Of a stretch of 32,000 bases of DNA, positions 8,672-28,595 are shown one piece after another. Location of the stretch: NCBI RefSeq assembly GCF_016127575.1, contig NZ_CP066019.1:1260001-1292000 (forward strand). The letters are read 5' to 3'. Positions within the stretch are counted from its first letter, which is position 1. Every line of letters begins with the position of its first letter. Position numbers and translations under genes: made by a program. This stretch comes from Cupriavidus necator (GTDB taxonomy: Bacteria > Pseudomonadota > Gammaproteobacteria > Burkholderiales > Burkholderiaceae). The notes under the pieces were generated by a model that was not told where the DNA came from, made no database searches, and saw nothing but the letters and a program-made list of their open reading frames with translations.

Positions 8672-8680
8672 GGCGGGCTC

Positions 8681-10390: not shown

Positions 10391-11914
10391 TTACTTCAGG
10401 CTGATGGTGGTGTTCACCCCATCGTTGACCGTCGCGTCATCAAACCACCGCGCCGTCACCGTCTTGGTCTGCGTATAGAACTGCACCACCTGCTTGCCGT
10501 ACGGACCCAGGTCGCCCAGCTTGGAGCCACGCGATCCGGTGAAGCTGAAGTAGGGCACCGGCACCGGGATGGGGATGTTGATGCCGACCTGGCCCACGTC
10601 GATCTCGCTCTGGAACTTGCGCGCCGCGGCGCCGCTCTGCGTGAACACGCCGGTGCCGTTGCCGAACGGGTTGCGGTTGACCAGGGCGATGGCCTCGTCC
10701 AGCGTATCGACGCCGATCACCACCAGCACCGGCCCGAAGATCTCCTCGGTGTAGATCGACATGTCGGTCCGGACATCGGTAAAGATGGTCGGGCCGATGA
10801 AGTTGCCCTGCGGAAAGCCCGGCACCTCCACGCCGCGGCCATCCAGCACCAGCGTCGCGCCTTCGCGCTCGCCGGCGGCGATGAGGCCGAGGATCCGTTC
10901 CTTTGCCGCCACCGATACCACGGGGCCGACATCGGTGCCTGCTTCAGCGCCGGCGCCGACTTTCAGGGTCTTGGCGCGTTCGACCAGGTCGGGCACCCAG
11001 TCGCGTGCCGCCCCCACCAGCACCACCACCGAGGTGGCCATGCAACGCTGGCCGGCCGCGCCGAAGCCTGCACCGGCCAGCGCGTTCAGCGTCTGCTCCT
11101 TGTGCGCATCGGGCAGTACCACGGCATGATTCTTCGCGCCCATCATCGACTGCACGCGCTTGCCGTGCGCGCTGGCCAGGTTATAGACATGGGTGCCAAC
11201 GGCGGTCGAGCCCACGAACGACACCGCCTTGATGTCCGGGTGCGTGCACAGCGCATCGACCACGTCCTTGGCGCCGTGCACCACGTTCAGCACGCCCGGC
11301 GGCACGCCGGCTTCCAGCGCCAGCTTGACCAGCTCCACGGTGGACAGCGGGTCCTGCTCCGACGGCTTGAGCACAAAGGTATTGCCGCACACGATCGCCA
11401 TCGGGAACATCCACAGCGGGATCATCGCCGGGAAGTTGAACGGGGTGATACCCGCGCACACGCCAATCGGCTGCTGCAGCGTGTAGGTGTCGACGGTGGC
11501 GGCCACGTTCTCGGCAAAGCCCCCTTGCTGCAGGGTGCCGATCGAACAGGCGTGTTCGACCACCTCCAGCCCGCGGAAGATGTCGCCCTCGGCATCGGCC
11601 AGGGTCTTGCCCTGCTCGGCGGTCAGGATGGCGGCGATACGCTTGCTGTGCTCGCGGATCAGGGCCTGGAAGCGCAGCATGACGCGCAGCCGTGCGCCGA
11701 TGGGCGTGTGGCGCCACGTGGCAAAGGCGCGGTGTGCGGCGCCCACGGCAGCGGCGACCTCGCTTGCAGTGGCCAGCGGCACGCGTGCCAGCACTTCCTG
11801 CGTGGCGGGATTGACCACGTTGCGGAATTCGGTGGCGGATGAATCCACCCATTCGCCGTTGATCAGCAGCGGCACGGTCGGCACGGCATTGTCGGTCTTG
11901 GGCACGGCACTCAT
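10391..11914 (-). CDS. mmsA: CoA-acylating methylmalonate-semialdehyde dehydrogenase
   Basis: The start is the ATG at 11914 (MSAVPKTDN...) with a [34 protein letters not shown] (catalytic Cys) and the C-terminal [20 protein letters not shown] match MmsA. The upstream 82 codons of the track ORF are Arg/Pro-rich and look non-coding. Confidence 0.93.
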
Positions 11915-11958
11915 GGTTGTCTCCGGAAGGTCTGGTTCTGTTGGCAAGGGATGGGGGA

Positions 11959-13092
11959 CTACAGGCTGCGCGCGATCAGCATGCGCTGGATCTCGCTGGT
12001 GCCTTCGTAGATCTGGGTGATGCGGGCGTCGCGGTAGTGGCGCTCGACCGGGTAGTCTTCGAGGTAGCCGTAGCCGCCGTGGATCTGCAACGCCTTGGAG
12101 CACACGCGCTCGGCCAGCTCGGACGCATACAGCTTGGCCTGCGAGGCTTCGGACAGGCACGGCACGCCTTCGCTGCGCATGCGCGCGGCGCGGTGCACCA
12201 GCAGGCGCGCGGCGTTCAGCTCGGTGGCCATGTCGGCCAGCATGTTGGCAATGGGCGGGTGTTCACGCAGTGCGCGGCCGAACTGGATGCGTTCAGATGC
12301 ATAGCGACATGCGGCCTCGAAGGCTGAGCGTGCAATGCCGATTGCCTGCGCGGCGATGCCGATGCGTCCGCCTTCCAGGTTGGACAGCGCAATGCGCAGG
12401 CCCTCGCCGGGCTCGCCCAGCAGTGCGTCATGCGGCACGGTGCAGTCTTCCAGCGTGATCGCGCAGGTGTCCGAGGCGCGGATGCCGAGCTTTTTCTCCG
12501 GGGCGTGGACGATAAAGCCGGGGGTGTTTGTGGGGACAAGGAAGGCCGAGATGCCCTTCTTGCCGCGCTCGGGCTCGGTCGAGGCGAACACCACCGCCAC
12601 ACCGGCGCGCTGGCCGTTGGTGACGAACTGCTTGCTGCCGTTGAGCACCCAGCCGTTGTCGGTGAAGCGCGCGCGCGTGCGCAGGTTGTGCGCCTCGGAG
12701 CCGGCCTGCGGCTCGGTCAGGCAGAACGCGCCGATCAGCTCGCCGCTGGCCAGCCGCGCCAGGTAGCGTTCTTTCTGCGCATCGGTGCCATAGTGCAGGA
12801 CCGGCCCGCAGCCGACCGAGTTGTGCACGCTCATCATCGTGGCGCAGGCGGCGCAGCCGGCGGCAATTTCTTCGATGGCGAGCGCATAGGCGACGTAGTC
12901 GGTATAGGTGCCGCCCCATTCCTCGGGAACGATCATGCCCAGTAGCCCCAGCGCGCCCATCTCGGCGACGACTTCATCGGGCAGGCGGCCGTCGCGGTCC
13001 CATTGCGCGGCGCCCACTGCCAGCCGTTCGCTGGCAAAGGCGCGCGCGCTGTCGCGGATCATGGTTTGCTCTTCGGTGTAGTCGCTGTGCAT
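11959..13092 (-). CDS. Acyl-CoA dehydrogenase (isobutyryl-CoA dehydrogenase type)
   Basis: The start is the ATG at 13092 ([19 protein letters not shown]). [45 protein letters not shown] and the C-terminal ACAD signature are present. Confidence 0.92.
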
Positions 13093-13244
13093 GGCAGATG
13101 AGGGTGGGGGTTTGGAGCCGCGCGGCAAGTCAGGCAGAATGCGCGCTTGGCGTTTGACCTGCGGGCAGTGTAGGAACGCCGGAGGCGGGCTCCTATGCCA
13201 AAATCCGCCAATCTTCGTGAACTCGTTTGCCACCCTCCAGCGCC

Positions 13245-14258
13245 ATGGAAAAAGGCAGTGTCGCCATCTGTTTCGTCCACCACGCCATCGCGGGGCTGCG
13301 CGCGCGCGGCATCGACCCGGATCCGGTGCTGCGCGGCTCTGGCATTGCGCCGGCGCTGCTGGCGGTGCCGCAGTCACGCGTATCGGCCGCCAGCTACAGC
13401 GAGCTGTGGATGGCCGTGGCGGCGGCGCTGGACGATGAATTCTTCGGGCAGGATTCGCGCAGCATGAAGTGCGGCAGTTTTGCCATGCTGTGCCACGCGG
13501 TGGCGGGCAGCCGCACCCTGGGGCAGGGGCTGGAGCGCATCACGCGGTACTTCCGGCTGCTGCTGGACGATATCGGCGTGCGGCTGGAGCGCCACGGCGA
13601 CGAGGCCGCGCTGGTGCTGACCGCGCCCTGCGCACACCTGGGGCGGCAGCCCGGCGTGTTTGCCAAGGAAACCATGCTGATCATGCTGCATGGCCTGATG
13701 AGCTGGCTGCTGCGGCGGCGCGTGCCGGTGCGGCTGGCGGCCTTCGACTACGACGAGCCGCAGTACAGCGCGGAATACCGCGTCATGTATTCGCGCCAGC
13801 TGGCGTTCGGGCAGCCGGCCACGGCGCTGGTCTTCGACGCGGCACTGCTGGAGCAGCCGGTGCGCCAGGACGAGCGCAGCCTGAAGGCCTTCCTGCGCGA
13901 TGCGCCGCACAACGTGGTGGTGAAGTACTCCGACCGCGCCAGCGTGGGCGCGCGCGTGCGCAGGCTGCTGCGTAACCAACGCCCGGATCAATGGCCCACC
14001 TTTGAAGATCTGGCGATCAGCCTGAACCTGTCGGCATCATCGCTGCGGCGCCGGCTGATGGAGGAGGGCGTCAGCTACCAGGACCTGAAGGACGCGCTGC
14101 GGCGCGATCTTGCCATCGAGGCGCTCAGCCATTCGGGCCGCCCGGTCGCGGATATCGCGGCCGAGCTCGGCTTTGCCGAGCCGGGCGCGTTCCACCGGGC
14201 GTTCCGGCGCTGGACCGGATCGCGCCCGGGGGCATACCGCCGCGTGGCGGAAGGTTGA
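13245..14258 (+). CDS. AraC-family transcriptional regulator (divergent from the valine-catabolic operon)
   Basis: The C-terminal HTH_18 region is [25 protein letters not shown]...[22 protein letters not shown]. The N-terminal arabinose-binding-like domain is present. I prefer ATG 13245 over TTG 13227. Confidence 0.88.
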
Positions 14259-14268: not shown

Positions 14269-15111
14269 CTACAGCTGTGCCGCGTGGTGGCGGATGTGAT
14301 CGGCGATAAAGCTGGTGATGAAGTAGTAGCCGTGGTCGTAGCCGCTGTGCCGGCGCAGCGTCAGCGGCTGGCCGACGGCCTGGCAGGCTGCCGCGAAGGC
14401 TTCCGGATGCAGCTGGCTTTGCAGGAACTGGTCGTCCAGTCCCTGGTCGACCAGGATGCCGGCCGGGAAGGGCGCCCCATTCTGGCGTGCCATCAGTTCA
14501 CTGGCGTCGTACTCAGCCCACGCGGCGCGGTCCGTGCCGAGGTAGCCAGTGAACGCCTTCTCACCCCACGGGCAGCGTGACGGCGCGGCGATCGGCGCAA
14601 ACGCCGACACCGAGCGGAAGCGCTGCGGATGGCGCTGCGCCAGCACCAGCGCGCCGTGCCCGCCCATGGAATGCCCGAAGATGCCGACGCGGCCGGCATC
14701 GCCCGGCAAGGCGGTGGTGACCAGCCCGAACAGTTCGTCGGCCACATAGCTTTCCATGCGCCAGTACTCCTGCCACGGCGCCTCGGTGGCATCGACATAG
14801 AACCCGGCACCCACGCCGAAGTCCCAGGCATCGGCCTCGCCCGGCAGGCCCGCTCCGCGCGGGCTGGTATCGGGCGCCACCAGCATCAGGCCGTGCTCGG
14901 CGGCAAAGCGCTGCGCACCGGCCTTGATCATGAAGGTTTCCTCGGTGCAGGTCAGGCCGGCCAGGTAGAACAGCACCGGCACCTTGCCGCCTGCCTGCGC
15001 CTGCGGCGGCAGGTAGACCGAGAAACGCATCGGCAGCCCGATCGCCGTCGAATCATGGCGATAGAAGCGCTGCACGCCGCCGTGGCAGCCGTGTTGCGAG
15101 ATCAGTTCCAT
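14269..15111 (-). CDS. fghA: S-formylglutathione hydrolase (esterase D family)
   Basis: GGVQRFYRHDS, VLFYLAGLTCTEE, GHSMGGHGAL (nucleophile elbow) and GYDHGYYFI are present. It lies directly downstream of adhC. Confidence 0.93.
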   Translation of the reverse strand: MELISQHGCHGGVQRFYRHDSTAIGLPMRFSVYLPPQAQAGGKVPVLFYLAGLTCTEETFMIKAGAQRFAAEHGLMLVAPDTSPRGAGLPGEADAWDFGVGAGFYVDATEAPWQEYWRMESYVADELFGLVTTALPGDAGRVGIFGHSMGGHGALVLAQRHPQRFRSVSAFAPIAAPSRCPWGEKAFTGYLGTDRAAWAEYDASELMARQNGAPFPAGILVDQGLDDQFLQSQLHPEAFAAACQAVGQPLTLRRHSGYDHGYYFITSFIADHIRHHAAQL

Positions 15112-15124
15112 GTCGGCGCCGTCC

Positions 15125-16231
15125 TCAGTAGAGCACCACGGAGCGGATCGACTCGCCGCGCTTCATCAGGTCGAAGCCCTCGTTGATGCGCTCCAGCGGC
15201 AGCGTGTGCGTGATCAGGTCGTCGATATTGAGCTTGCCTTCCATGTACCAGTCGACGATCCTGGGCACATCGGTGCGCCCGCGCGCGCCGCCAAAGGCCG
15301 AGCCCTTCCACTCGCGCCCGGTCACCAGCTGGAACGGGCGCGTCGAGATCTCCGCGCCGGCCTCGGCCACGCCGATGATGATCGACTTGCCCCAGCCCTT
15401 GTGGCAGCACTCCAGCGCCTGGCGCATGACCTGCGTGTTGCCGATGCATTCGAACGAATAGTCTGCACCGCCGTCGGTCAGCTGGATGATGTGGTCGACC
15501 ACGTTCTCCACGTCCTTCGGGTTGATGAAGTGGGTCATGCCGAACTTGCGCGCCATGGCTTCGCGGCCCGGGTTCAGGTCCACGCCGATGATCTTGTCGG
15601 CGCCCACCATCTTGGCCGCCTGGATCACGTTCAGGCCGATGCCGCCCAGGCCAAACACCACCACGTTGGCGCCGGCTTCCACCTTGGCGGTGAACAGCAC
15701 CGCGCCCACGCCGGTGGTGACGCCGCAGCCGATGTAGCAGACCTTGTCGAACGGCGCATCCGGGCGGATCTTGGCCAGCGCGATCTCCGGCACCACGATG
15801 TGGTTGGCGAAGGTCGAGGTGCCCATGTAGTGGAAGATCGGCTTGCCGTCGATGGAAAAGCGCGAGGTGCCGTCCGGCATCAGGCCCTTGCCCTGCGTGG
15901 CGCGGATCGCCTGGCACAGGTTGGTCTTGCGCGACAGGCAGAACTTGCACTGGCGGCATTCCGGCGTGTACAGCGGGATCACGTGGTCGCCGGGCTTGAG
16001 CGAGGTCACGCCGGGGCCAACGTCGGTGACGATGCCGGCGCCCTCATGGCCCAGGATTGCCGGGAAGATGCCTTCCGGGTCGGCGCCGGACAGGGTGTAG
16101 TAATCGGTATGGCAGATGCCGGTGGCCTTGACTTCCACCAGCACTTCCCCGGCGCGCGGGCCGTCCAGGTCCACGTCTTCAATGGTCAGCGGGGCGCCGG
16201 CTTTCCAGGCGATGGCGGCTTTGGTTTTCAT
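15125..16231 (-). CDS. adhC: S-(hydroxymethyl)glutathione dehydrogenase / class III alcohol dehydrogenase
   Basis: ATGICHTDYYTLSG, GHEGAGIV, CRQCKFCLSRKTNLC and FGLGGIGL are present. There is a GGAGGA SD before the ATG at 16231. Confidence 0.94.
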   Translation of the reverse strand: MKTKAAIAWKAGAPLTIEDVDLDGPRAGEVLVEVKATGICHTDYYTLSGADPEGIFPAILGHEGAGIVTDVGPGVTSLKPGDHVIPLYTPECRQCKFCLSRKTNLCQAIRATQGKGLMPDGTSRFSIDGKPIFHYMGTSTFANHIVVPEIALAKIRPDAPFDKVCYIGCGVTTGVGAVLFTAKVEAGANVVVFGLGGIGLNVIQAAKMVGADKIIGVDLNPGREAMARKFGMTHFINPKDVENVVDHIIQLTDGGADYSFECIGNTQVMRQALECCHKGWGKSIIIGVAEAGAEISTRPFQLVTGREWKGSAFGGARGRTDVPRIVDWYMEGKLNIDDLITHTLPLERINEGFDLMKRGESIRSVVLY

Positions 16232-16400: not shown

Positions 16401-16985
16401 TTACGCCTTCAGCGCTCTCGCTTCCAGGTTCCAGAGCTTGCGGTCGCTGGTGGAGACGGCCACAGCGCCTTGTGCGAGCGCGCTGCGGATATCATCCCGA
16501 TTGCAGACAAAGCCTGATGTCACGATCGGCGGCAGCGCCTTGCGGTCCGCTTCTGGCAGGTGCGACAGCATCGGTGCCGGCATCAGCTGCACCAGGTTCG
16601 GGTCGCTCTGTTCGAGCGCCTTGACGCTGCGCGGCCAGGTGGAGCGGTCGGTCACAAAGACCTTCTGCATCGTCACCATGCCGGCGCGGTTGGCGCGCTG
16701 GATCGTTGCCACGCGCGTGGAGACCAGACTGGTCACCCCGATGTCGGCCAGGTACTCCACCCCGCCCTTGTCCTGCGACAAGCCTTCGCAGCTGTCGATA
16801 TTGACGATGACGTACTTGCCGGCGCTGGCCAGCGTGGCGATGACGGGCTGCAGCTTGCGCAGTTCCACGTTGGCGACAATGCAGACTTCGGCCACGCTTT
16901 CAAAAATGGCGTCGATCTGGTCAACACCGTAGAGTGTGCCGATGACGGGGTGTCGCGTCAGGCGCGCACCGAGGGACCTGTCCAT
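16401..16985 (-). CDS. glpP: GlpP-family glycerol-3-phosphate-responsive antiterminator homolog (G3P_antiterm, PF04309-like)
   Basis: At 194 aa it aligns by eye along its whole length with Bacillus subtilis GlpP. Examples are NIDSCEGLSQDKGGVEYL against HMDLIEGLKHDEYGAEFV, LVSTR against IISTR, MQKVFVTDRS against IQRVFLLDSR, and GAVAVSTSDRKLW against GAVAVTTSNTALW. It starts 5 nt after the upstream stop. Confidence 0.85.
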   Translation of the reverse strand: MDRSLGARLTRHPVIGTLYGVDQIDAIFESVAEVCIVANVELRKLQPVIATLASAGKYVIVNIDSCEGLSQDKGGVEYLADIGVTSLVSTRVATIQRANRAGMVTMQKVFVTDRSTWPRSVKALEQSDPNLVQLMPAPMLSHLPEADRKALPPIVTSGFVCNRDDIRSALAQGAVAVSTSDRKLWNLEARALKA

Positions 16986-16990
16986 GCTGG

Positions 16991-18541
16991 TTACTTCGGT
17001 TCGTTGGTGAGCACGTCACTGAGACCCAGCTTGCCTGGGTTCAGGATATTCTGCGGGTCGAGTGCCTGCTTGACCGCCGCCAGCAGCGGGAACGCCGTGT
17101 CCAGCGACGGGGCCATGTATGGCGCGCGCAACAGTCCGATTCCGTGGTGGTGGCTCAGTGCCGCATTGTATTGGATCAGCACCGCATTGGCAGCATCCCA
17201 TGCCTGGCGATACCACTTCTGGCGGTCTTCCACCGCGACCTCACCGCGCAGCGAGAAGTACAGGCAGGCGCCGTCCACATAGGCGTGCGACTGGTGCGCG
17301 GAGCCGGCGAGGGTGCCCGGCACGGCATTGATGGCCTTGACCACGTCCGCGTAGATGGCAGCCAGGTCGCGCCACGGTCCCGACATTTCGAGCGTGTCGG
17401 CGACAAAGCCGGGGCTGCGCTTGAAGCCCTCGGCGCTCTTGCCGGTCAGGTAGCGCGTGTCGAGCCAGCGCTCGAAAATGGACTCGCTGTCCAGCTTGTC
17501 ACCAAGTTCCTGGCACACGCGCTCGCTGATCGTCATCACCGCATCGACCATCTCGCGCGCCCCCTCGTCGGCAACCAGCAGGACGTTGGTGTCCGGCAGC
17601 CCGAACTGCACGCCACTCTCCAGTTCGTCATAGAGCCGCAGCGCCGCGGGATTGGCCCCGCGCTGCATGATTTCGCGGCAGGCCTCCAGGCCGATGGCAA
17701 AGGTCTTGAAGCCATAGGCGATGGCGCGCCCGTAGTCGGGCAGGCGGTGCAGCTTGAGGCGCACGCGCACGATCACGCCCAGCATGCCCTCGGACCCGAT
17801 GAACAGTTGCTGCAGATCCGGGCCCAATGCCGCGCGCGAGTAGCCGCCCACGGTGACGAGGCTGCCGTCGGCCAGCACCACATCCATGCCGAACACCATG
17901 TCCTCGATCTTGCCGTAGCGCGTGGACAACTGACCGGCGCCGCGGCAGGCTACCCATCCGCCGACCGTGCTGATCGCGTACGACGATGGCCAGTGGCCCA
18001 TCGTCATGCCGAATTCCTTCTGCACGGTCTGTTCGAAAATGTCGCCGAACATGCCGGCTTCCACGTCGACGATCTGGCTGTCCTTGTCGAATCCGACCAA
18101 CTGGTTCAGGCCGCACACGTCCAGCACGATGCCGCCGCGCACGGGCAGGGCGGCGCCCGTCACGTTGCTGCGGCCGGCCGATACGGTGACCGGAATGGCA
18201 CTGGCGCTGGCAATGCGCATGACTGCCTGCACCTGTTCCACGGTGGAAGCGCGCACGATGACCCCGCGCGGCGTGGCGGGCCTGCCGGCGGTCTCCGTGA
18301 TCATCGATCCTGCCCACCAGTCGCGCGTCCACGCCACGACGTCGGCGGTATCGGTCAGGACCTCGTCGGCCACCTTGCGCAAGGCCGCAATATCGGCCGC
18401 GCAGACGGCAATGGTGTCGCGTTGCAGGCCCGGCGCATCCGGGGTGCCCTGGATGTTCGCCGCATAGCCCGGCGGCGTGTGGGCGCCGACGACGTAGTTG
18501 CCGCGGTTGTAGCCGCGCTTGATGGCTTCCTTGCTGATCAT
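16991..18541 (-). CDS. FAD-linked oxidase, alkyl-dihydroxyacetonephosphate-synthase (AGPS)-like subfamily
   Basis: VSAGRSNVTGAALP is FAD_binding_4. HWPSSYAISTVGGWVACRGAGQLSTRYGKIEDMV resembles the AGPS-type segment. The C-terminal SHHHGIGL...LDPQNILNPGKL matches FAD-linked oxidases. It overlaps the upstream glpD-like gene by 4 bp. Confidence 0.85.
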   Translation of the reverse strand: MISKEAIKRGYNRGNYVVGAHTPPGYAANIQGTPDAPGLQRDTIAVCAADIAALRKVADEVLTDTADVVAWTRDWWAGSMITETAGRPATPRGVIVRASTVEQVQAVMRIASASAIPVTVSAGRSNVTGAALPVRGGIVLDVCGLNQLVGFDKDSQIVDVEAGMFGDIFEQTVQKEFGMTMGHWPSSYAISTVGGWVACRGAGQLSTRYGKIEDMVFGMDVVLADGSLVTVGGYSRAALGPDLQQLFIGSEGMLGVIVRVRLKLHRLPDYGRAIAYGFKTFAIGLEACREIMQRGANPAALRLYDELESGVQFGLPDTNVLLVADEGAREMVDAVMTISERVCQELGDKLDSESIFERWLDTRYLTGKSAEGFKRSPGFVADTLEMSGPWRDLAAIYADVVKAINAVPGTLAGSAHQSHAYVDGACLYFSLRGEVAVEDRQKWYRQAWDAANAVLIQYNAALSHHHGIGLLRAPYMAPSLDTAFPLLAAVKQALDPQNILNPGKLGLSDVLTNEPK

Positions 18542-20217
18542 GCTGAGTCTCCCATGAGGACGGATTTTTCGAGGGCGACGGCGGCCAGGTATTCGCTGAC
18601 CTGCCGCGCCACGGCCGCTTCGGACAATCCGAGTTCGGCCTGGAGGATCTGGCCCACCCGCGCTGCGGCGCGGGCGGAGGCATCGCGCGCCATCAGGCGG
18701 GCGCGGATGCGTCGTGACAAGACGTCGTCAACCGTGCCGGCCAGTTCATGGCGCACGGCGTAGACGATTTCGGCTTCCGTATACGGCAGGCCTTCGACGA
18801 TCGGCCTGGCAAGGGTGGCGTCCGCCTGCAGGATGTCACTGACAAAGCGCGCCTCCGTGCCATAGCGCTCGCCCAGGTGCGCGGACATGCCGCCGGATGC
18901 GACGATGGCCTGCGCGTCATAGCCAGCCGCCCCGAGCAGATAGGCCGATCTGGTCAGGCACTTGCTGCGCTTGCCGATGACCTTCTGCGCCGCATCGATG
19001 GTTTGCTCGGCCATGTGCCGCGAGGTCGTGAGCTTGCCGCCGACGATGGTCACCAGGCCGTCGTCCGCGGTATGAATCTCGTGATTGCGCTTGATTTCCA
19101 GGGTCTTGCCGCCGGGCGGCGCCACCAGCGGGCGGCACCCCGCGATGCTGCCGACCACGTCATCCGCCGTCAGGTCGGTCTTTAGTGCCGAGCGCGCGCC
19201 CTCCAGCAGGAAGTCGAGCTCCTGCCGGGTGCACATGACATTGTCGAGGTCGCCCTCATAGTCTTCGTCGGTGGTGCCGAGGTAGGACACATTGCCCCAC
19301 CGCGTGATCGTTGCCCGGCGGCTGCGCCCGGGCACCGGGATCGTCACCGTGCAGTCATTGCGGATCTTCAGCCACGGGATGGCAACGTGGACGCCCTTGG
19401 CAGGGCGAATGTGCAGGGTCCTGGCCTCGCCCTTCCTGCGGCCGGTCCAGTCGCGCAGCCAGACGCCGGTTGCCATGATGACCACGCCTGCGCGCACGCG
19501 GATCTCGCGCTCGCCGGCGTGGACAATGGCGCCATCCACCTTGCCGTGGCCGTCGCGGGTGATCTCGGCGACGGTCGCGTGATTGACCACGGCCGCTCCG
19601 TGGAACGCTGCCGTGCGCGCGATGTTCAGTGTCAGGCGGGCATCATCGACGCGCGCATCGAAGTACAGGTAGCCGCCGGTCAGATGTTCCTCATTGAAGG
19701 TCGGGCAGTGGGACAGCACCTCGGCCTTGGTCAGCTTCTGGTGCAGGATTCCCTCGCGCCAGCCACCAGCGAGGTCGTAGGTCCAGAGCAGGCTCTCGAA
19801 GGCCTTGGCGAGGCGCTTGTCGAACACGCCGTTGCGCTCCATCACCGGGAACAGGAACGGCAGCCGCTGCACCAGGTGGCGCGCGTTGCGGCGCAGGCGC
19901 TGGCGCTCCAGCAGTGAATGGCGTACCAGGCCGAGATTGCCCTGCTCGATATAGCGCAGGCCGCCGTGCACCATCTTGGATGACTTGGAAGAGGTCCCCG
20001 CGGCGAAGTCGCACTTTTCAACCAGCGCCACGCGATAGCCGCGCAAGCTGGCATCCAGCGCGGCGTAGGCGCCCGTCACGCCGCCGCCGACCACCAGGAT
20101 GTCGAACGCATCCGCCTCCAGGCGGTCGAGCAGGTCCCGGCGCACCAGCCGCAACGGCTCGGTGCTGGTCATGGCGGCGCGCTCGCGGTTAGCGCTGCGG
20201 GATGGAAAAATCACCAT
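18538..20217 (-). CDS. FAD-dependent glycerol-3-phosphate dehydrogenase/oxidase-like protein (GlpD/GlpO family)
   Basis: DILVVGGGVTGAYAALDASLRGYRVALVEKCDFAAGTSSKSSKMVHGGLRY is the canonical GlpD N-terminus. A C-terminal alpha-helical domain is present. ATG 20217 has AGGAG 11 nt upstream. ATG 20172 is an alternative start. Confidence 0.88.
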   Translation of the reverse strand: MVIFPSRSANRERAAMTSTEPLRLVRRDLLDRLEADAFDILVVGGGVTGAYAALDASLRGYRVALVEKCDFAAGTSSKSSKMVHGGLRYIEQGNLGLVRHSLLERQRLRRNARHLVQRLPFLFPVMERNGVFDKRLAKAFESLLWTYDLAGGWREGILHQKLTKAEVLSHCPTFNEEHLTGGYLYFDARVDDARLTLNIARTAAFHGAAVVNHATVAEITRDGHGKVDGAIVHAGEREIRVRAGVVIMATGVWLRDWTGRRKGEARTLHIRPAKGVHVAIPWLKIRNDCTVTIPVPGRSRRATITRWGNVSYLGTTDEDYEGDLDNVMCTRQELDFLLEGARSALKTDLTADDVVGSIAGCRPLVAPPGGKTLEIKRNHEIHTADDGLVTIVGGKLTTSRHMAEQTIDAAQKVIGKRSKCLTRSAYLLGAAGYDAQAIVASGGMSAHLGERYGTEARFVSDILQADATLARPIVEGLPYTEAEIVYAVRHELAGTVDDVLSRRIRARLMARDASARAAARVGQILQAELGLSEAAVARQVSEYLAAVALEKSVLMGDSA

Positions 20218-20235
20218 GTCTGTTATTGCTCCTGA

Positions 20236-21759
20236 TTAATGGACCGCAAGCGCGTCCGCATGGTTGAGCTCGGATGCCACCCGCGCATGCCAGAGCGCGC
20301 GCCGCTGGGCGCGCTCATCGGCGCTGATCGCCGGTTCGAATACTGCGTCCGGGGTGGTGGTGGTCCGGGCCTGCTGCATGGAATCCCAAAGCAGGCCGGA
20401 CGAGCCGGCAAGGTAAGCGATGCCGCGCAGGCTGGCGCGGTCGGTCTCCTTCATGCGGTGGATGGAAATTCCGCTGAGATCCGCCTGCATCTGCAGCAGC
20501 GCATCGCTGCCGGACAAGCCGCCGCCAACCACGAGCTCCGACACCGGCACGCCCGCGATCTCCCGGTTGGCCTCGATGCAGGAAGTCACCGAATGCGCAA
20601 TGCCTTCAAGGATGGCAAAGGCCATCTCGGCCTGCGTCGTTGCCATCGAGATGCCGGTCAGTGCGGCGCGCGCCTCGGGCTGCATGCGTGGGACGCGCAG
20701 GCCGGTCAGCGCGGGAATAAAGGTCACGCCTCGTGAAGACGCAACGGTGCTGGCCAGCGCACTGATTTGCCTGGCGTTCTCGAACCAGCCGAGCTTGTCG
20801 CAGACCCAGTTGAGCGCGGAGCCGGTGGTGGCGACAAAGGTTTCGACGGAGAAATGCGACACGCCCAGTTGCCGGCGCGCGGTCATGGTCAGGGTGCTGT
20901 CCGACTTGCCGCTGCGGGCAGGAAGGTTCGGACCGACTACCAGGTCGACGAAGCTGCCGGTGCCATGCAGGCACATCGCCTGGCCGGCATCGAGACATCC
21001 CAGGCCGATTGCGCCGGCGAGCTGGTCCCCGGCACAAGCCAGGATCGGCACGTCAATCCCCAGCACGTCCGGCCGCGTGCGGCCGAAGTTGTCCGCATCC
21101 TGGCGCAGCTCAGGCAGCAGCTCGCGCGGAAAGCCAAGCGCGTCGATCCAGTCGAGCTGGTAGCGATGCCCGGTCAGTACATAGGCGTTGCAGGAAGTGG
21201 CGTTGGTCGGCGTGGTGATGCACGTGCGTGCCGTCGACAGGTGCCAAAGCAGCCAGCTGTCGATGGTGCCGAAGGCGAGCTGGCGCGCACGGAAGGCGTC
21301 AGCCACAGCCGGCGTGTCGCGCAGGTGCCGCGCCGCCCATAGGTAAGGCGAGCGCACACCGGTGGGGCGGCCGACTGCTTCGCGCAGAGTCGCGTCCCAT
21401 GCCGGCGCAAGCTGATCCAGATCGGCTGCGTATCGCGTGTCCTGCCACACCATGGCGGGTACCAGCGCACGTCCGGTCTGCGTGTCCCACAGTACCGCGG
21501 TGGCGCGCTGGGTCGCGATGGCGAGGGCGGTGACGGTCAGGTTTTCGCGGGCAGCCTGTGCCAGGGTGGCGCGGCAAACTGCCAGGGTCTTGTCGAGCAG
21601 GACGTCGGCGTCCTGCTCGACCACGCCAGGGCAGGGCGAACGGACCTCAAGCGTGGTGTACTCGAGGCACATGACATGACCGTCAGCGGCGACCACCGCT
21701 GCCCGGGTGCCTGAGGTGCCCTCATCGATCGCAAGGATGACATTTCTGCGCTGGGTCAT
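20236..21759 (-). CDS. FGGY-family carbohydrate kinase, divergent glycerol-kinase-like
   Basis: LAIDEGTSGTRAAV is the phosphate-1 motif. The protein is collinear with GlpK by eye (TQRATA, VWQDTR, GDQLAG, HGTGSF, VGGGLS). The residues equivalent to E. coli GlpK E84 and Q246 appear replaced (see findings). It overlaps the upstream MFS gene by 4 bp. Confidence 0.88.
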   Translation of the reverse strand: MTQRRNVILAIDEGTSGTRAAVVAADGHVMCLEYTTLEVRSPCPGVVEQDADVLLDKTLAVCRATLAQAARENLTVTALAIATQRATAVLWDTQTGRALVPAMVWQDTRYAADLDQLAPAWDATLREAVGRPTGVRSPYLWAARHLRDTPAVADAFRARQLAFGTIDSWLLWHLSTARTCITTPTNATSCNAYVLTGHRYQLDWIDALGFPRELLPELRQDADNFGRTRPDVLGIDVPILACAGDQLAGAIGLGCLDAGQAMCLHGTGSFVDLVVGPNLPARSGKSDSTLTMTARRQLGVSHFSVETFVATTGSALNWVCDKLGWFENARQISALASTVASSRGVTFIPALTGLRVPRMQPEARAALTGISMATTQAEMAFAILEGIAHSVTSCIEANREIAGVPVSELVVGGGLSGSDALLQMQADLSGISIHRMKETDRASLRGIAYLAGSSGLLWDSMQQARTTTTPDAVFEPAISADERAQRRALWHARVASELNHADALAVH

Positions 21760-23219
21760 GGGCGGGCCTTCTCAATCGCGGGATTCATGAAACCCGGAGC
21801 GTCCGGCACATCGCCCTTGAACTGCGGGGCATCGGCTTCATTGTCGGGGTTGATGGTGGTGCGGGTCGGGTCCCAGCGGATCGCAAAGCAGATGATGCTG
21901 GCCAGCAGCGGGACCACAGAGAGAATCAGGAAGGTGGTTTCCAGCCCATACTGTGCGCGGAACAGCGGGAACACCAGCAGGCCCAGTGCAGCGCCGATGG
22001 CGCCGAGCGCGCCGATGATGCCGTTGGCGCCCGCGCGAAGTTCGCTGCGGAAGGACAGTGACGACAGGCTTTTGCCATTCGCGCCGGGCCCGCCCGAGTG
22101 GAACAGGATGAACAGCGACGGAACCACCACTGCCATCCACATCGGCATCTTGCCGTTGAACAGGCCCAGGATCAGCAGCATGGCGAATACCGCCGCAAAG
22201 CCGAACGCCGAGGCGCGGCGCAGGCCCAGCTTGCGGCCTATCAAGGGCGAGAGGAAGCCGCCAAAGATGCCGCAGACGTTGAAAACCAGCGCGCCGATGG
22301 TCGCGTAGACAAAGTCCTTGCCGAACAGGGCCGCACTGATCAGCGGCAGGTACCAGCCGATCGCGAAGTACTGGATCGACTGCCCGATCTGCACGGTGGC
22401 CGCCAGCACGGTGCGCGGCAGGTAGACGCCGCGGAAGATCAGCAGAACGTTGGCCAGGCCGCGGCGCGCCTGGTTGAGGACGGGGATGCGTTCCGCGGGC
22501 GGGGCGGCAACGAACTCACGTCCGTAGATGCGCGTCATGGCGTGTGCGGCGGCATCGAGCAATTCCTTGCGTGCCAGCCAGATCGGGCTTTCCACCAGGA
22601 ACAGGCCCTGCAGCAGCAGGATGACCACGCCGAAGACCGCGGTGGCTGCCACCGAGTAGCGCCAGATCGTATCGCCAACGTCCCAGGAGTAGAACAGCAG
22701 TGCCAGCAGCAGGTTGGAGCAGACGGCCGTGTACCACATGCCTTGCCACGTGTTCAGCCGACTCTTGAGTTTCACCGGCGTGAACTCCGCCAGCACCGCC
22801 ATGGCGATGGCAAAGTCGATGCCGTAGGCCGCGCCGACAAAGAAGCGACCAGCCAGGATCACCTCGAAGCCGGGGGCAAACACCACCAGCAATGCGCCGG
22901 CCACGGCCAGGACCTTGGCGAGAACCAGCGGGCGGACGCGGCCCCAGCGGTCGGCCATCCAGCCGCCGATAGGGTTGAAGGCAATGGCCACCCAGGAGGC
23001 AAACGAGGTCAACAGGGCGACCTTTGCAGGCGCGAGTTGAAGGTTGCGCGTCATCGGCCCGAGGCCGGCGCTCAGCGCAGAATTGGAAAACGCGTCAAGG
23101 AATAGCCCGCCGAGTGCGAGCCACCAGATGACACCGGCCCTGCCGCGAATGCCCGGGCAGGAATCTATGTAGGCAATGACATCATCGATGCCACGAATCT
23201 TGATGGCAGAGTGTTGCAC
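21756..23219 (-). CDS. MFS transporter, sugar-porter-like
   Basis: It has about 12 predicted hydrophobic spans. GGWMADRWGRVRP is MFS motif A. VESPIWLARK is the sugar-porter-type loop motif. The GTG start at 23219 has an AGGAG SD at 23230-23226. Confidence 0.85.
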   Translation of the reverse strand: MQHSAIKIRGIDDVIAYIDSCPGIRGRAGVIWWLALGGLFLDAFSNSALSAGLGPMTRNLQLAPAKVALLTSFASWVAIAFNPIGGWMADRWGRVRPLVLAKVLAVAGALLVVFAPGFEVILAGRFFVGAAYGIDFAIAMAVLAEFTPVKLKSRLNTWQGMWYTAVCSNLLLALLFYSWDVGDTIWRYSVAATAVFGVVILLLQGLFLVESPIWLARKELLDAAAHAMTRIYGREFVAAPPAERIPVLNQARRGLANVLLIFRGVYLPRTVLAATVQIGQSIQYFAIGWYLPLISAALFGKDFVYATIGALVFNVCGIFGGFLSPLIGRKLGLRRASAFGFAAVFAMLLILGLFNGKMPMWMAVVVPSLFILFHSGGPGANGKSLSSLSFRSELRAGANGIIGALGAIGAALGLLVFPLFRAQYGLETTFLILSVVPLLASIICFAIRWDPTRTTINPDNEADAPQFKGDVPDAPGFMNPAIEKARP

Positions 23220-23227
23220 GGCGGTCT

Positions 23228-23298
23228 CCTCTTATTTGTTCTGTAAGAGGCCGCAGCAACTGCAAGGCGCGAAGAGACCATCTTACAGATGGTCTCTT
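23228..23298 (-). promoter_or_regulatory. Structured 5' leader of the MFS-kinase-glpD-oxidase-glpP operon (two hairpins; the second overlaps the SD)
   Basis: HP1 is a perfect 12-bp stem with a 3-nt loop at 23272-23298 (AAGAGACCATCT/AGATGGTCTCTT). HP2 pairs CCTCTTA (23228-23234) with TAAGAGG (23244-23250) across a 9-nt loop. One HP2 arm overlaps the SD by 3 nt. Confidence 0.5.
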
Positions 23299-23316
23299 AT
23301 CTAGATCTGCGTGACC

Positions 23317-23345
23317 AATGTATGGCTTCGCAGGCACAGCGTCAA
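23317..23345 (-). promoter_or_regulatory. Putative sigma70-type promoter of the five-gene operon
   Basis: On the minus strand, TTGACG (23345-23340), a 17-nt spacer, then TACATT (23322-23317). It sits about 90-100 nt upstream of the GTG start. Confidence 0.5.
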
Positions 23346-26516: not shown

Positions 26517-27797
26517 GAGCTACGTCACCACCCGCGTGCTGGTACCCGAGCAGGACTTGAGTTCCGGCACGCTGAAGCTGGCACTGCTCCCCGGCGTCAT
26601 AGGCGAACTGCGCTTCGCCGAGCCCGACCTGTGGGGCACCCGGAAATCGGCTTTCCCCGCACCCAGGCGACTTGCTGAACCTGCGCGACCTTGAGCAAGG
26701 CCTGGAGCAAATGAAGCGTGTGCCGAGCCCAGGATGTGGACATGCAGATCGTGCCGACGAAGGCGCCGGGCGTGAGCGACGTGGTGATCGCCGTCAAACG
26801 CGGCAAGCCCTGGACGGTGGTGGCCTCGGTGGACAATTCCGGCACGCGCTCGACCGGCAAGTGGCAGGGCAACCTGAGCGTGAGTCTGGACAATCCGCTC
26901 GGCCTGAACGACCTTTTCAACGTCGGCTACAACCAGGATCTGGGCTTCGCCAACAAGGAACAGGCACGCGTGGCTGGAATGGCTATTACTCGGTGAACAA
27001 CTATTTCCAGCAGATCGCCGGTGTCAATCAGACCTTCATCTCCAGCGGCAAGTCGGAGACAGCGGACCTGAAGCTGCACCGCGTGCTCAACCGCAGCCAG
27101 AACGATGTGTTCGGCATGCAGTTTCGCCTGACCCGGCGCTTTGGCAAGAGCTTCATCGAGGACACCGAGATCGCGCAGCAGCGCCGCAACAATACGGTGC
27201 TCGAGGCGGGCATCACGGATCGCCACTACTTCGGCGCGGCGCAGTTCGACGGCACGCTGGCCTATCGCCAGGGCCTCGGCGGATTCGGCGCGCAGGACGA
27301 TGTGTTGGCCGACAGTGGCGGCCCCACCTGGCGCTATCGGATGCTCGTGGCGGACGCCAACCTGTCGGTACCGTTCAAGCTGGGCGAGCTGCCGCTGCGG
27401 TATGTCACCACTTTCCACGGCCAGTTCACCAACGACCGGCTCTACTACATTGATGCGCTCACCATCGGCAGCCGCTACACGGTGCGTGGCTTCGATGGAG
27501 AGAACCTGCTGGCCAGCGAGCGCGGCTTCTATTGGCGCAATGAGCTACATGCGCCTCTGGGCGGCAGCCGGGCAGGCGCTGTATGCAGGACTCGATTATG
27601 GAAGGGTCTTCGGGCCGATTACCACTGCGCTGGCCGGCACCCAACTGACCGGGGCGGTGATTGGACTACGCGGAGGGCTGGGCTCGCGGCTGGGCTCAGT
27701 CTCGTATGACGTGTTCGTCGGTATGCCGGTCTATAAGCCCGCAGCGTTCCATACGGCCGCGGTGACGGCTGGGTTGCAGGTGGTGTATCGGTATTGA
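26509..27797 (+). pseudogene. ShlB/FhaC/HecB-family TpsB outer-membrane transporter, lacking its N-terminus and broken by about 4 frameshifts
   Basis: Homologous segments lie in different frames. They are DKSYVTTRVLVPEQDLSSGTLKLALLPG (frame 1), GDLLNLRDLEQGLEQMKRVPS (frame 2), QDVDMQIVPTKAPGVSDVVIAV...DNSGTRSTGKWQG...DNPLGLNDLF (frame 3), YSV..NYFQQIAG...DTEIAQQRRNN...IGSRYTVRGFDGENLLASERGFYWRNEL (frame 2) and GQALYAGLDYGRVFG...GAVIGLRG...YDVFVGMPVYKP (frame 3, stop at 27795-27797). Confidence 0.88.
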
Positions 27798-27860
27798 TTC
27801 CCGCAGGACGAGGCGTGACAGTGCAGAATCATCGGCACACCAACAGTTGGAAAGCATCCG
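27798..27860. repeat. Left copy of an imperfect ~60-bp direct repeat flanking vapBC
   Basis: It shares four collinear blocks with 28534-28595. They are CCCGCAGGA (27800-27808), GTGACAGTG (27815-27823), CACACCAAC (27836-27844) and AGCATCCG (27853-27860). Confidence 0.7.
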
Positions 27861-27889
27861 GTTGTAGCGGGGCGTACTTCAGCAGCCTG

Positions 27890-28270
27890 CTAGTGAAGCT
27901 TGGGTCGATGCGCCACACGAAAACGCACTGACAAGTCGTTTAGACGCTGATCCAGTGTCCATAGCCGTGCGCCTGGCGTGATCAAAGTGGAAGCCAGCAA
28001 TGAGACATCCACCAGGCCGCAACCGAGTCCATGCAATTTCTCGTGCTCGATGAACGCCATTACCTCTGCCAGGCTGGCCTGCCTTGCGGGCTGCAACAGC
28101 CCGATGTCACCGAGTGTCCGCGCACGCGGTGCCGGGGGCGTGCCGCAGGCTAGTTCAACCAGGACCATGGGGTGGGTCAATGCTTGATCCGACACGAGCA
28201 AACTGACCAGTGCGTCATTGCGGTTCTTGAAATGATCCACCCACACAGAGGTGTCGACGAGCACGCTCAT
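27890..28270 (-). CDS. vapC: Type II toxin-antitoxin system VapC-family toxin (PIN domain)
   Basis: [14 protein letters not shown] carries the first PIN acidic residue. VLVELACG and GLVDVSLLA supply later acidic positions. It is 126 aa and overlaps the upstream antitoxin gene by 4 bp. Confidence 0.9.
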
Positions 28271-28473
28271 TTCGATTCGGGTTCCATGCGGCTACGTGGC
28301 ACATCTTCCATGTCGGGCGCGGTGCCACCCAGCGCCGCGAGGCGCTTGGCTGCTTGCACCCGCACGAAAGTCTTGATTGCCTCACGAAAAAGATCAGATT
28401 TGTCCATGCCAGGGTCGGCTATCTCTAGTGCTTGTTCATAAAGGGCGTCATCGATAGTGACGGTCGTGCGCAT
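28267..28473 (-). CDS. vapB: Type II antitoxin, VapB family
   Basis: The 68-aa protein [18 protein letters not shown]...[14 protein letters not shown] is typical of VapB antitoxins. There is a GGGAG SD. It is translationally coupled to vapC. Confidence 0.88.
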
Positions 28474-28493
28474 AGCATGCTCCCTGCCTCAGA

Positions 28494-28515
28494 TTTGATG
28501 TTATGGTGCATCAAA
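28494..28515. promoter_or_regulatory. Inverted repeat in the vapBC promoter region (candidate VapB operator)
   Basis: TTTGATG (28494-28500) N8 CATCAAA (28509-28515), lying 21-42 nt upstream of the vapB ATG. Confidence 0.45.
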
Positions 28516-28533
28516 AAAAGCATCTAGGCAAGG

Positions 28534-28595
28534 TTGCCCGCAGGATGGTGTGACGGTGACTGCCCCGTCACACCAACGCGCCGCTACAGCATCCG
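28534..28595. repeat. Right copy of the imperfect ~60-bp direct repeat flanking vapBC; contains a perfect 10-bp hairpin
   Basis: The blocks are CCCGCAGGA (28537-28545), GTGACGGTG (28550-28558), CACACCAAC (28569-28577) and AGCATCCG (28588-28595). The hairpin is GGTGTGACGG (28547-28556) N8 CCGTCACACC (28565-28574). Confidence 0.7.

Follow-up and report, generated by a model that had tools for sequence, protein, structure and literature searches.

Gene content of the locus

We analysed a 32,000-nucleotide stretch of Cupriavidus necator DNA (NCBI RefSeq assembly GCF_016127575.1, contig NZ_CP066019.1, positions 1,260,001 to 1,292,000), here referred to as the window, in which five genes on the minus strand form a tightly packed operon behind a promoter-like element and a structured leader RNA. 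An earlier reading of the same DNA, made from the letters alone (the sequence-only reading), had described five minus-strand open reading frames (ORFs) with almost no space between them, and both the ORFs and their junctions were borne out. In the order of transcription, they encode a 487-aa transporter of the major facilitator superfamily (MFS) with a GTG start (21756-23219), a 507-aa GlpK-like FGGY kinase in which Glu84 is replaced by Ala (20236-21759), a 559-aa GlpD/GlpO-type FAD dehydrogenase (18538-20217), a 516-aa FAD enzyme resembling alkyldihydroxyacetonephosphate synthase (AGPS; 16991-18541) and a 194-aa protein of the GlpP family (PF04309), a putative RNA-binding regulator (16401-16985). 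The first two genes share an ATGA overlap of 4 bp at 21756-21759, as do the dehydrogenase and AGPS-like genes at 18538-18541, in agreement with the translational coupling of the latter pair that had been claimed, while the two remaining junctions are gaps of 18 nt and 5 nt, respectively.

An identical 194-aa GlpP homologue is encoded on chromosome 2 of C. necator H16 (AM260480.1, ~1.34-1.36 Mb) and in sister strains. The kinase and the dehydrogenase carry the published H16 tags H16_B1199 and H16_B1198, respectively, and the tags of the transporter (H16_B1200), the AGPS-like enzyme (H16_B1197) and the GlpP homologue (H16_B1196) were inferred from position. The G+C content at third codon positions was 0.81-0.87 in all five ORFs, as expected in a genome with a G+C content of 67%, which indicates that they are real genes.

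Pfam searches of the five proteins returned MFS_1/Sugar_tr, FGGY_N and FGGY_C, DAO and DAO_C, FAD_binding_4 and FAD-oxidase_C, and G3P_antiterm, respectively, in line with all the domain assignments of the sequence-only reading. The transporter was confirmed by Pfam and NCBIfam searches as an MFS protein of the sugar-porter/aromatic-acid type; it matched MFS_1 at 1.3e-30 and Sugar_tr at 5.9e-27, and it reached no NCBIfam cut-off, with scores far below every one of them.

In one C. necator-like strain (GCA_001481455.1, contig LMVF01000019.1, 5308-8448, equivalent to 18538-21759 of the window), a short deletion joins the kinase and the GlpD-like genes in frame, and the fusion product of 1046 aa contains FGGY_N, FGGY_C, DAO and DAO_C. 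As this is a natural fusion of consecutive pathway enzymes, it suggests functional coupling of the kinase and the GlpD-like protein.

Conservation of the five genes as a cassette

An alignment of the GlpP homologue was scanned against one genome per species, and from the 222 relatives obtained, the 80 best loci were retained. The MFS, kinase, GlpD-like, AGPS-like and GlpP-like genes were found in the same order and with the same spacing in all 76 untruncated loci, and the four truncated contigs held only collinear parts of the set; gene order across the 80 loci thus agrees with the earlier view of the genes as one unit, and the loss of synteny among relatives that would have spoken against that view was clearly not seen. 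The encoded proteins are 68-100% identical to those of the window and come from nine genera, namely Cupriavidus, Paraburkholderia, Burkholderia, Achromobacter, Variovorax, Herbaspirillum, Undibacterium, Verminephrobacter and Mycetohabitans. The MFS gene is the first gene of the cassette wherever the locus extends that far, and the AGPS-like gene is never missing from it.

On the other hand, the neighbours of the cassette in the window were kept only in C. necator-like strains; on the upstream side these are genes for an aldo-keto reductase and for another MFS protein, and on the downstream side genes for a class III alcohol dehydrogenase (ADH), an esterase and an AraC regulator. Since the gene set is constant while the flanks differ, we regard the five genes as a portable cassette and, as part of the tentative proposal set out below, as a self-contained and horizontally shared catabolic operon of the Burkholderiales. 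Co-occurrence of the genes had been suggested as a question for both the Burkholderiales and the Actinobacteria; the full set of five was found in the former, whereas the latter showed only the trio of kinase, GlpD-like and AGPS-like genes.

In 29 of the 80 loci, the glpP homologue is followed, at a distance of no more than a few tens of bases, by a gene for a protein with an ABM domain, and an iron-dependent ADH (Fe-ADH) gene comes immediately next in 21 of these. This long form of the operon (L052:10605-12094, L027:10608-12076 and 27 more) occurs in Burkholderia, Paraburkholderia, Mycetohabitans, Herbaspirillum and Undibacterium, and its Fe-ADH resembles ErcA, FucO, SarD and 4-hydroxybutyrate dehydrogenase, with scores below all cut-offs. 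C. necator has the short form, without the ABM-domain and Fe-ADH genes.

In the window, a zinc-type ADH gene and an esterase-family gene (14269-16231, minus strand) lie on the same strand as the cassette and 169 nt downstream of it, with no obvious terminator between the GlpP gene and the pair. They were read as encoding an S-(hydroxymethyl)glutathione dehydrogenase and an S-formylglutathione hydrolase. We considered a link to formaldehyde detoxification or methyl-ether cleavage, with this pair as part of the unit, and dropped it, as the pair is conserved only in C. necator-like strains.

Promoter and leader RNA

A consensus scan of the region upstream of the MFS gene identified, on the minus strand, a -35 hexamer (TTGACG, 23340-23345) and a -10 hexamer (TACATT, 23317-23322). 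The whole element, TTGACG-17-TACATT (23345-23317), is one of three such sites found in 7.6 kb, compared with 0.8 expected. TTGAC(A/G) stands at a constant distance from the leader in all genera, and TAnAnT precedes a conserved G/A-CAGAT by 6-7 nt in all loci. Transcription would start at about position 23310, giving a 5′ leader RNA of ~90 nt (23220-23310, minus strand) that is conserved in 81 loci, which represent 65 distinct sequences. The 108-nt stretch from the promoter to the first codons folds at -43.1 kcal/mol, while shuffled sequences fold at -25.9 +/- 3.0 kcal/mol (z = -5.7), and none of 200 shuffles was as good; both the promoter-like element and the structured leader had been noticed in the sequence-only reading.

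The layout of the leader is the same in every locus and consists of a TTGACA-type promoter, G/A-CAGAU, a 12-bp hairpin (P1), a variable hairpin, GCCUCUUACAGA, the Shine-Dalgarno sequence and the GTG start codon. P1 of the window is AAGAGACCAUCU-GUA-AGAUGGUCUCUU (23272-23298, minus strand). In an alignment of 59 distinct leaders, P1 was paired in 95.8% of the cells, compared with 36-54% for slid controls. At one pair, a compensatory change from G-C to A-U was found in 19 sequences, and G-U wobble changes were seen at five positions; a change from C to U in the 5′ arm makes a U-G pair in 18 sequences, and a change from A to G in the 3′ arm makes a U-G pair as well.

The apex of P1, UCUGUAAGA-U-GGU (23277-23289, minus strand), is also the 5′ strand of a long-range helix formed with positions 23240-23251. 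Within it, UCUGUAAGA is complementary to UCUUACAGA, located ~40 nt downstream, and the two were paired in 99.2% of the cells (slid controls 38-57%). Compensatory changes were seen at two positions of this helix, from U-A to C-G in one sequence each of Herbaspirillum and Verminephrobacter, and from A-U to U-A in one sequence of Achromobacter. RNAalifold, given no hint, picked the long-range helix as the consensus and extended it by GGU/GCC over the whole of CCUCUU.

This CCUCUU belongs to GCCUCUUACAGA (23240-23251, minus strand), which overlaps the 3′ strand of the long-range helix and which minimum free energy (MFE) folds and RNAalifold mark as an anti-Shine-Dalgarno element. In the MFE fold of 61 of the 65 leaders, CCUCUU pairs wholly or partly with the GGAG of the Shine-Dalgarno region (AAGAGGAGACC, 23223-23233, minus strand), which lies 3 nt upstream of the GTG; all loci share GGAG(A/G)C with the GTG after it. 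P1 was formed in every single-sequence MFE fold inspected. Since CCUCUU can pair either with the Shine-Dalgarno sequence or with the apex of P1, the two states of the leader would differ in the masking of the ribosome site. The constrained-fold energy of the alternative conformer was unreliable for some sequences, for which the wrong partner was picked, and we used pair counts and RNAalifold instead.

The control at the RNA level that had been proposed thus finds support in a conserved leader with covariation. Classical antitermination is unlikely, as no intrinsic terminator (a stem followed by a U-run) was found in the leader of the window and none was visible in those of the other genera, and the leader presents a switch that masks the Shine-Dalgarno sequence instead. 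Rfam 15 covariance models gave no family for the leader at E <= 10 beyond two chance-level matches (E = 4.3 and 5.8). A reading of the perfect inverted repeat as a DNA operator was tried and dropped on account of the wobble-type changes and the second covarying helix.

The GlpP homologue and its association with the leader

The fifth gene had been taken for a homologue of the GlpP antiterminator, and Pfam, the match to the Listeria GlpP structure and a fold search agree that it encodes a true member of the PF04309/GlpP family. The protein matched G3P_antiterm at 1.4e-49 (168 bits against a gathering threshold of 27) and 3kts, the GlpP of Listeria, at E = 5.7e-18 with ~22% identity. An AlphaFold2 model of it had a predicted local distance difference test (pLDDT) value of 86, and its top fold matches were 3kts and 1vkf, with template modelling (TM) scores of 0.76-0.82, followed by phosphate-binding TIM-barrel enzymes, in keeping with a ligand that is phosphorylated.

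The leader hairpin motif occurs once per locus, always immediately upstream of the first gene, and no further copies were found elsewhere in the window or elsewhere in 92 loci. Scanning metagenomes with a degenerate form of the motif gave 120 matches, of which 34 contained the full leader; 33 of these 34 contigs also match cassette proteins, and the 34th is cut off. No other targets were identified among the 120 matches, and the remaining ones, without a cassette, were chance-like.

The metagenomic loci included a divergent clade in which the leader, the MFS gene, the kinase (55% identity) and GlpP (65%) are retained and no GlpD-like or AGPS-like gene is present. In this clade, the loop and its partner vary in a matched manner, GCA occurring with UUGCAG and GUA with UUACAG. 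In three of its contigs (L142, L125 and L156), the MFS gene is deleted to a mini-ORF of 44 codons (VHTAVPLRGIDDVAALIDS...), which still has the first 19 codons together with the start codon and its regulated Shine-Dalgarno sequence, and the stop codon of which overlaps the ATG of the kinase. The mini-ORF thus keeps the regulated start site coupled to the kinase, which is what a translational switch would require. The leader follows GlpP and the kinase, and not the GlpD-like and AGPS-like genes.

In another contig (L204:5525-7418, minus strand), genes for a PhpC/PsrA-type iron ADH (TIGR03405, 440 bits against 423.7) and for the phosphonoacetaldehyde hydrolase PhnX (335 bits against 220), both above their curated cut-offs, were observed directly upstream of the leader. 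These phosphonate genes, for a 2-hydroxyethylphosphonate dehydrogenase and PhnX, form a separate transcription unit upstream of the divergent leader-MFS-kinase-GlpP unit. A PhpC/PsrA-type dehydrogenase together with PhnX makes up the 2-hydroxyethylphosphonate route (PMC13576164).

The kinase and the dehydrogenase

The kinase shows a two-domain architecture of FGGY_N plus FGGY_C with the catalytic Asp245 present. However, it fails the GlpK model TIGR01311, with 329 bits against a cut-off of 590, as well as NF000756, with 304 against 498. Its alignment to the glycerol kinase of Escherichia coli showed that R83, W103, Y135, D245 and F270 are retained, while E84 is replaced by Ala. A study of the FGGY family identified Arg83-Glu84-Tyr135-Asp245-Phe270 as the specificity signature of glycerol kinase, identical across all GlpKs (PMC3245297). 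The cassette kinase reads R-A-Y-D-F and does not satisfy this signature; moreover, position 84 is Ala, Cys or Ser (QR[A/C/S]) in all of the 101 cassette kinases in which it was readable. The glycerol pocket, which the sequence-only reading had described as substituted, is thus altered in every copy.

In case of the dehydrogenase, DAO (165 bits) and DAO_C (82 bits) were both above their cut-offs, and the protein remained below the NCBIfam equivalog cut-offs (267 bits against 360 for NF008899, and 243 against 352 for a second model). The closest structure was 3da1, with 219 bits, compared with 147 bits for 2qcu; the PDB annotates the former as glycerol-3-phosphate dehydrogenase only and the latter as aerobic glycerol-3-phosphate dehydrogenase. 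The HGGLRY, CRPL and GGKLT segments of the protein align with motifs of 2rgh/2rgo, namely HGGxRY (His/Arg/Tyr), RPL (Arg) and GGKxT (Lys), which provide the substrate-binding residues of GlpO. Judged by these motifs, the enzyme probably still handles a moiety similar to glycerol 3-phosphate.

The canonical glpK/glpD pair of H16 is H16_A2507/A2508, to which the growth of this strain on glycerol, poor as it is, has been attributed, and in published H16 proteomes B1199 was undetected in cells on glycerol-containing substrates. B1198/B1199 appear in two papers as another putative glpK/glpD pair, and apart from this listing our literature searches brought up no study of the cassette. A substrate other than glycerol, as suggested earlier, fits these published data, with the canonical pair located elsewhere and B1199 undetected, and the cassette is probably not simply a spare glycerol operon.

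The AGPS-like flavoprotein

The best PDB matches of the fourth protein were the AGPS structures 2uuu from Dictyostelium (149 bits) and 4bby from mammals (138 bits), followed by the LctD lactate dehydrogenase subunit (109 bits) and D-lactate dehydrogenase (83 bits). As the first two outscore the others, AGPS is its closest relative within the VAO/PCMH superfamily. In the alignment, R302 corresponds to R419 and Y428 to Y578, both in guinea-pig numbering and the latter catalytic, while S418 takes the place of T568 and SHHHG that of the H615-617 loop. The Dictyostelium equivalents are R352 and Y508, and Dictyostelium R447 is outside the aligned blocks. By these alignments the protein is a true AGPS relative with a complete catalytic set. 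In the mechanism established for AGPS, these residues serve in the reaction in which the C1 proton of acyl-dihydroxyacetone phosphate is removed, a flavin-N5 adduct is formed, the C1 substituent is expelled and a nucleophile adds, and the essential residues have been named (PMC3509576).

The AGPS-like family comprises 6,667 proteins at E <= 1e-30, and database sources label the homologues 'alkyldihydroxyacetonephosphate synthase'. For the enzyme of the cassette, the gene context would argue for a small polar rather than a long-chain substituent. The window also contains, at 514-2073 on the plus strand, the gene of a second FAD-linked oxidase (FAD-oxidase_C, 180 bits), which is an unrelated paralogue of the AGPS-like gene.

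The enzyme trio outside the Burkholderiales cassette

Through a plasmid protein search and a homologue search with context look-ups, we identified GlpD-like, AGPS-like and FGGY kinase genes that are adjacent to each other, with short gaps or overlaps, on a plasmid of Paracoccus jeotgali and in Devosia limi, Rhodopseudomonas pseudopalustris, a Comamonadaceae metagenome-assembled genome and Acidimicrobiia. On a Microbacterium plasmid, the trio has one additional gene interposed. The trios of Paracoccus, Devosia, Rhodopseudomonas and Comamonadaceae are accompanied by a PotD-type ATP-binding cassette (ABC) importer, an ADP-forming acyl-CoA synthetase and a TetR regulator, and often also by an aldehyde dehydrogenase (ALDH), two crotonases and an iron ADH. 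The recurrence of alcohol and aldehyde dehydrogenases beside the trio fits the release of a small polar alcohol.

The AGPS-like proteins of the trios are 43-48% identical to that of the window, the acidimicrobial copy showing 48%, and the GlpD-like protein of Paracoccus is 40% identical to its counterpart. Glu84 is absent from all trio-associated kinases in other phyla. Neither a GlpP gene nor the leader motif is present in any of these loci; the presence of TetR regulators in the place of GlpP favours a regulatory role for the GlpP homologue.

The accessory genes of two of these loci, L087 (Paracoccus jeotgali pCBA4604-01) and L214 (Devosia limi), encode a PotD-type importer, an ADP-forming CoA ligase, two crotonases and an ALDH similar to betaine aldehyde dehydrogenase, to which Paracoccus jeotgali adds a thioesterase and an iron ADH resembling GbsB/ErcA. 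Speculatively, such a set would suit a quaternary-amine or hydroxy-acid substituent, for example the head group of a betaine lipid. A literature search found no paper on the catabolism of diacylglyceryl-trimethylhomoserine (DGTS).

Proposed pathway and its control

We tentatively propose that the operon degrades a 1-substituted glycerol, likely a glyceryl ether, under the control of its leader RNA and a GlpP-type protein. A sigma-70-type promoter would give rise to an mRNA with the ~90-nt leader, in which P1 forms by default, so that the free CCUCUU would pair with the first gene's Shine-Dalgarno sequence and keep translation off. The GlpP homologue, carrying as its ligand the phosphorylated compound made by the operon's kinase, would bind the leader and favour the helix between the P1 apex and GCCUCUUACAGA; the anti-Shine-Dalgarno element would then be occupied and the ribosome site freed, and the tightly or translationally coupled downstream genes would be expressed as well. 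The inducer is probably not glycerol 3-phosphate.

The transporter would import a small 1-substituted sn-glycerol, most likely the glyceryl ether of a small polar alcohol, and the GlpK-like kinase, with its pocket opened through the loss of Glu84, would phosphorylate the free primary hydroxyl. The GlpD-type flavoprotein would oxidise C2, with the electrons passing to the respiratory chain, and yield a 1-substituted dihydroxyacetone phosphate (DHAP). The AGPS-type flavoenzyme would then remove the C1 proton, form a flavin-N5 adduct and expel the substituent, and the addition of water would give DHAP for central metabolism next to the released alcohol, which could be handled by an ADH in many relatives, and by an ALDH in some, encoded beside the cassette.

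A 1-substituted glycerol is preferred here over a plain C3-C6 polyol because the AGPS catalytic residues are intact and because the trio recurs in other phyla. An ether is the most attractive substrate since an ester would not need such a route, and thioether, amine or acyl substituents may be alternatives. The sequence-only reading, sound for the most part, had inferred a catabolic module for a polyol or polyol phosphate other than, or in addition to, glycerol, controlled at the RNA level; a substrate other than glycerol and control at the RNA level both found support, but in place of a plain polyol, a 1-substituted glycerol now seems more likely.

Several points weigh against this proposal. 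Beyond the gene content, conservation, residue patterns, covarying RNA helices and co-occurrence that were observed, it takes in the substrate class, the direction of the AGPS step, the GlpP homologue's ligand and its binding to RNA, and the 'on' conformer, all of which we infer. AGPS is known as a biosynthetic enzyme with a carboxylate, not an alkoxide, as its leaving group, and we know of no demonstrated precedent for the hydrolysis of alkyl-DHAP with release of an alcohol. The transporter offers no hint of the substrate, and the C. necator cassette is without a dedicated ADH, the class III ADH and esterase downstream of it being conserved in close relatives only. The case for no induction by glycerol is non-detection in one proteomics paper. 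The kinases of the distant trios are only 23-34% identical to that of the window and may have been recruited independently. As for the control, the alternative helix was computed as ~10 kcal/mol less stable, the covariation of the leader comes from few independent events among related sequences, and the modelled GlpP homologue is a TIM barrel, a fold common to many enzymes, so that the fold search would leave an enzymatic role possible.

A broader version, which we consider somewhat unlikely, would make the bacterial AGPS homologues catabolic flavin-dependent, non-redox 'ether hydrolases' that, once the substrate is phosphorylated and oxidised at C2, cut the otherwise inert C1-O bond of glyceryl ethers, and maybe C1-S or C1-N bonds, to yield DHAP, together with, in the Burkholderiales, a GlpP-type protein that senses the phosphorylated ether, refolds the leader and unmasks the Shine-Dalgarno sequence. 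Deacylated betaine lipid (glyceryl-trimethylhomoserine), alkylglycerols and other natural glycerol conjugates would be its candidate substrates.

The sequence-only reading had compared the operon with the erythritol catabolism of Brucella, and a C4-C6 polyol pathway of that logic would produce a ketose phosphate, with roles as isomerase, epimerase or lyase for the AGPS-like and GlpP-like proteins. In its favour, EryA/EryB likewise combine a kinase with a subsequent FAD polyol-phosphate dehydrogenase, the transporter is similar to sugar porters and the fold of GlpP resembles those of the sugar-phosphate epimerases and aldolases NanE, RPE and DERA. Nevertheless, we regard this pathway as quite unlikely and the comparison as not sustained: genes of the EryC, TpiA2 and RpiB types were absent in and next to the cassette in any genus, as were EryD/DeoR-type regulators from the cassette and its conserved flanks, and the kinase belongs to the GlpK branch and matched no erythritol-kinase model. 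In addition, the AGPS catalytic set is complete and would act at C1 of a DHAP skeleton, and GlpP is replaced by TetR in other trios, as one would expect of a regulator but not of an enzyme.

It is also improbable that the cassette is, as its annotation has it, a redundant glycerol operon (glpK2-glpD2) in which the AGPS-like gene is inconsequential and GlpP senses glycerol 3-phosphate as in Bacillus. The scores of the kinase and the dehydrogenase far under the equivalog cut-offs, the absence of Glu84 in 101 of 101 copies, the crediting of the poor growth of H16 on glycerol to A2507/A2508, the failure to detect B1199 on glycerol-containing substrates and the constant presence of the AGPS-like gene in the main cassette, coupled by a 4-bp overlap, all speak against it. 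This is despite the fact that the best hidden Markov model and PDB matches of the two proteins are glycerol kinase and glycerol-3-phosphate dehydrogenase/oxidase, that five of the six glycerol-contact residues and the motifs for binding glycerol 3-phosphate are retained, and that two papers list the putative glpK/glpD pair.

The regulation, too, may have been misread, in that the 11-bp inverted repeat could be the DNA operator of an unlinked repressor or the leader a protein-independent riboswitch, and the PF04309 protein a pathway enzyme. Perfect in C. necator, the repeat is located at ~+12 to +38, where operators are commonly found; GlpP has the TIM-barrel fold shared by many enzymes, and RNA binding in this GlpP clade is putative. 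Against this, the changes seen in the repeat preserve the RNA pairing and break the DNA symmetry, and the loop covaries with a site ~40 nt downstream, its partner in a second helix. The presence of the leader strictly tracks that of GlpP and the kinase: it persists in loci that lack the GlpD-like and AGPS-like genes and is absent where GlpP is absent, and we give such a misreading a low probability.

Finally, a lipid-remodelling or ether-lipid module, which would convert monoacyl- or alkyl-glycerol, by uptake, phosphorylation and oxidation, to acyl-DHAP and, through a true AGPS, to alkyl-DHAP for the synthesis of ether lipids, is very unlikely, for although the AGPS catalytic residues are intact, the homologues are named 'alkyldihydroxyacetonephosphate synthase' in the sources and glpD1 of mycobacteria presumably adjoins an AGPS-like gene and a lipid kinase, FGGY kinases are soluble kinases of small polyols, the cassette is without an acyltransferase and an acyl/alkyl-DHAP reductase, other versions of it come with PotD- or sugar-type ABC importers, a CoA ligase, an ALDH and hydratases in a catabolic context, and the Burkholderiales are not known as makers of AGPS-type ether lipids.

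Other features of the window

Two further regions of the window were annotated. A gene cluster at 7544-14258 encodes an ECH_2 enoyl-CoA hydratase/isomerase, a dehydrogenase of the 3-hydroxyisobutyrate type, an ALDH and an acyl-CoA dehydrogenase, together with a divergently oriented gene for an AraC-type regulator, and looks like one for branched-chain (valine) catabolism. At 26672-29000, a truncated two-partner-secretion transporter of the ShlB/FhaC type was detected, with only a fragment of the POTRA domain. The G+C content of this region is 0.59-0.62 compared with ~0.67, and the lengths of its called genes vary between sister strains, which suggests decay or rearrangement.

Comparison with known systems

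New are the recognition of the five genes as a portable cassette, the loss of Glu84 from all copies, the full AGPS catalytic set, the trio shared across phyla and a two-state leader that shows covariation and is tied to the GlpP homologue. As regards the control, the closest known system is GlpP of Bacillus subtilis, which acts on the glpD, glpFK and glpTQ leaders. Both regulators belong to PF04309 and share its fold, are encoded together with a kinase and a GlpD-type dehydrogenase, and go with a 5′ leader that is structured and follows a promoter without a linked DNA-binding regulator, and the likely ligand in both is the phosphorylated product of the kinase. C. necator, however, is a Gram-negative betaproteobacterium, and its leader has no U-tract terminator and carries instead an anti-Shine-Dalgarno element and two mutually exclusive helices, which points to control of translation initiation. 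Its ligand is probably not glycerol 3-phosphate, and one target leader was found per locus. If the proposal is true, GlpP-type protein-RNA control would extend from the Firmicutes to the Proteobacteria, with translation and not termination as the step controlled. Such a system would be the first of the GlpP type beyond the Gram-positive bacteria and would represent a class of riboregulator that has not been described before, and the leader-GlpP pair could serve as an orthogonal inducible switch.

The canonical glpFK-glpD operons with GlpR likewise have an FGGY kinase of the GlpK branch followed by an FAD-dependent dehydrogenase of the glycerol-3-phosphate type, leading to the DHAP skeleton. 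The cassette differs from them in its MFS transporter in place of GlpF, the loss of Glu84, the scores below the cut-offs, the additional AGPS-like step and a GlpP-type regulator where those operons have GlpR of the DeoR type. As H16 serves as an industrial chassis, it matters for the engineering of glycerol utilisation that B1198/B1199 are probably not a spare glycerol pathway.

The AGPS (or ADPS) enzymes of animals, Dictyostelium and myxobacteria share FAD_binding_4 and FAD-oxidase_C with the C. necator protein, as well as the equivalents of R419, Y578 and H615-617, with Ser for T568. A C1-substituted DHAP as the expected substrate and non-redox chemistry through a flavin-N5 adduct are predicted here to be common to both. 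The identity to AGPS is low, and the C. necator enzyme is accompanied by an importer, a soluble kinase and a respiratory dehydrogenase and not by a DHAP acyltransferase and a reductase; the direction proposed for it is the release of the substituent, with water as the nucleophile. AGPS is known only as the enzyme that forms the ether bond in ether-lipid biosynthesis, and more than 6,000 bacterial homologues are without an assigned role. The occurrence of the trio across three phyla points to a catabolic function, possibly a new way of cleaving glyceryl ethers.

The chemistry suggested here would follow a logic known from the LigD/LigEF β-etherase system of lignin degraders and from 3-keto-glycoside elimination, in which the alcohol beside an ether is oxidised to a ketone, so that the neighbouring C-H is acidified and the C-O bond becomes cleavable. 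The enzymes belong to unrelated families; in contrast to these systems, the cassette would phosphorylate its substrate first and would cleave it through a flavin iminium adduct rather than by means of glutathione or β-elimination.

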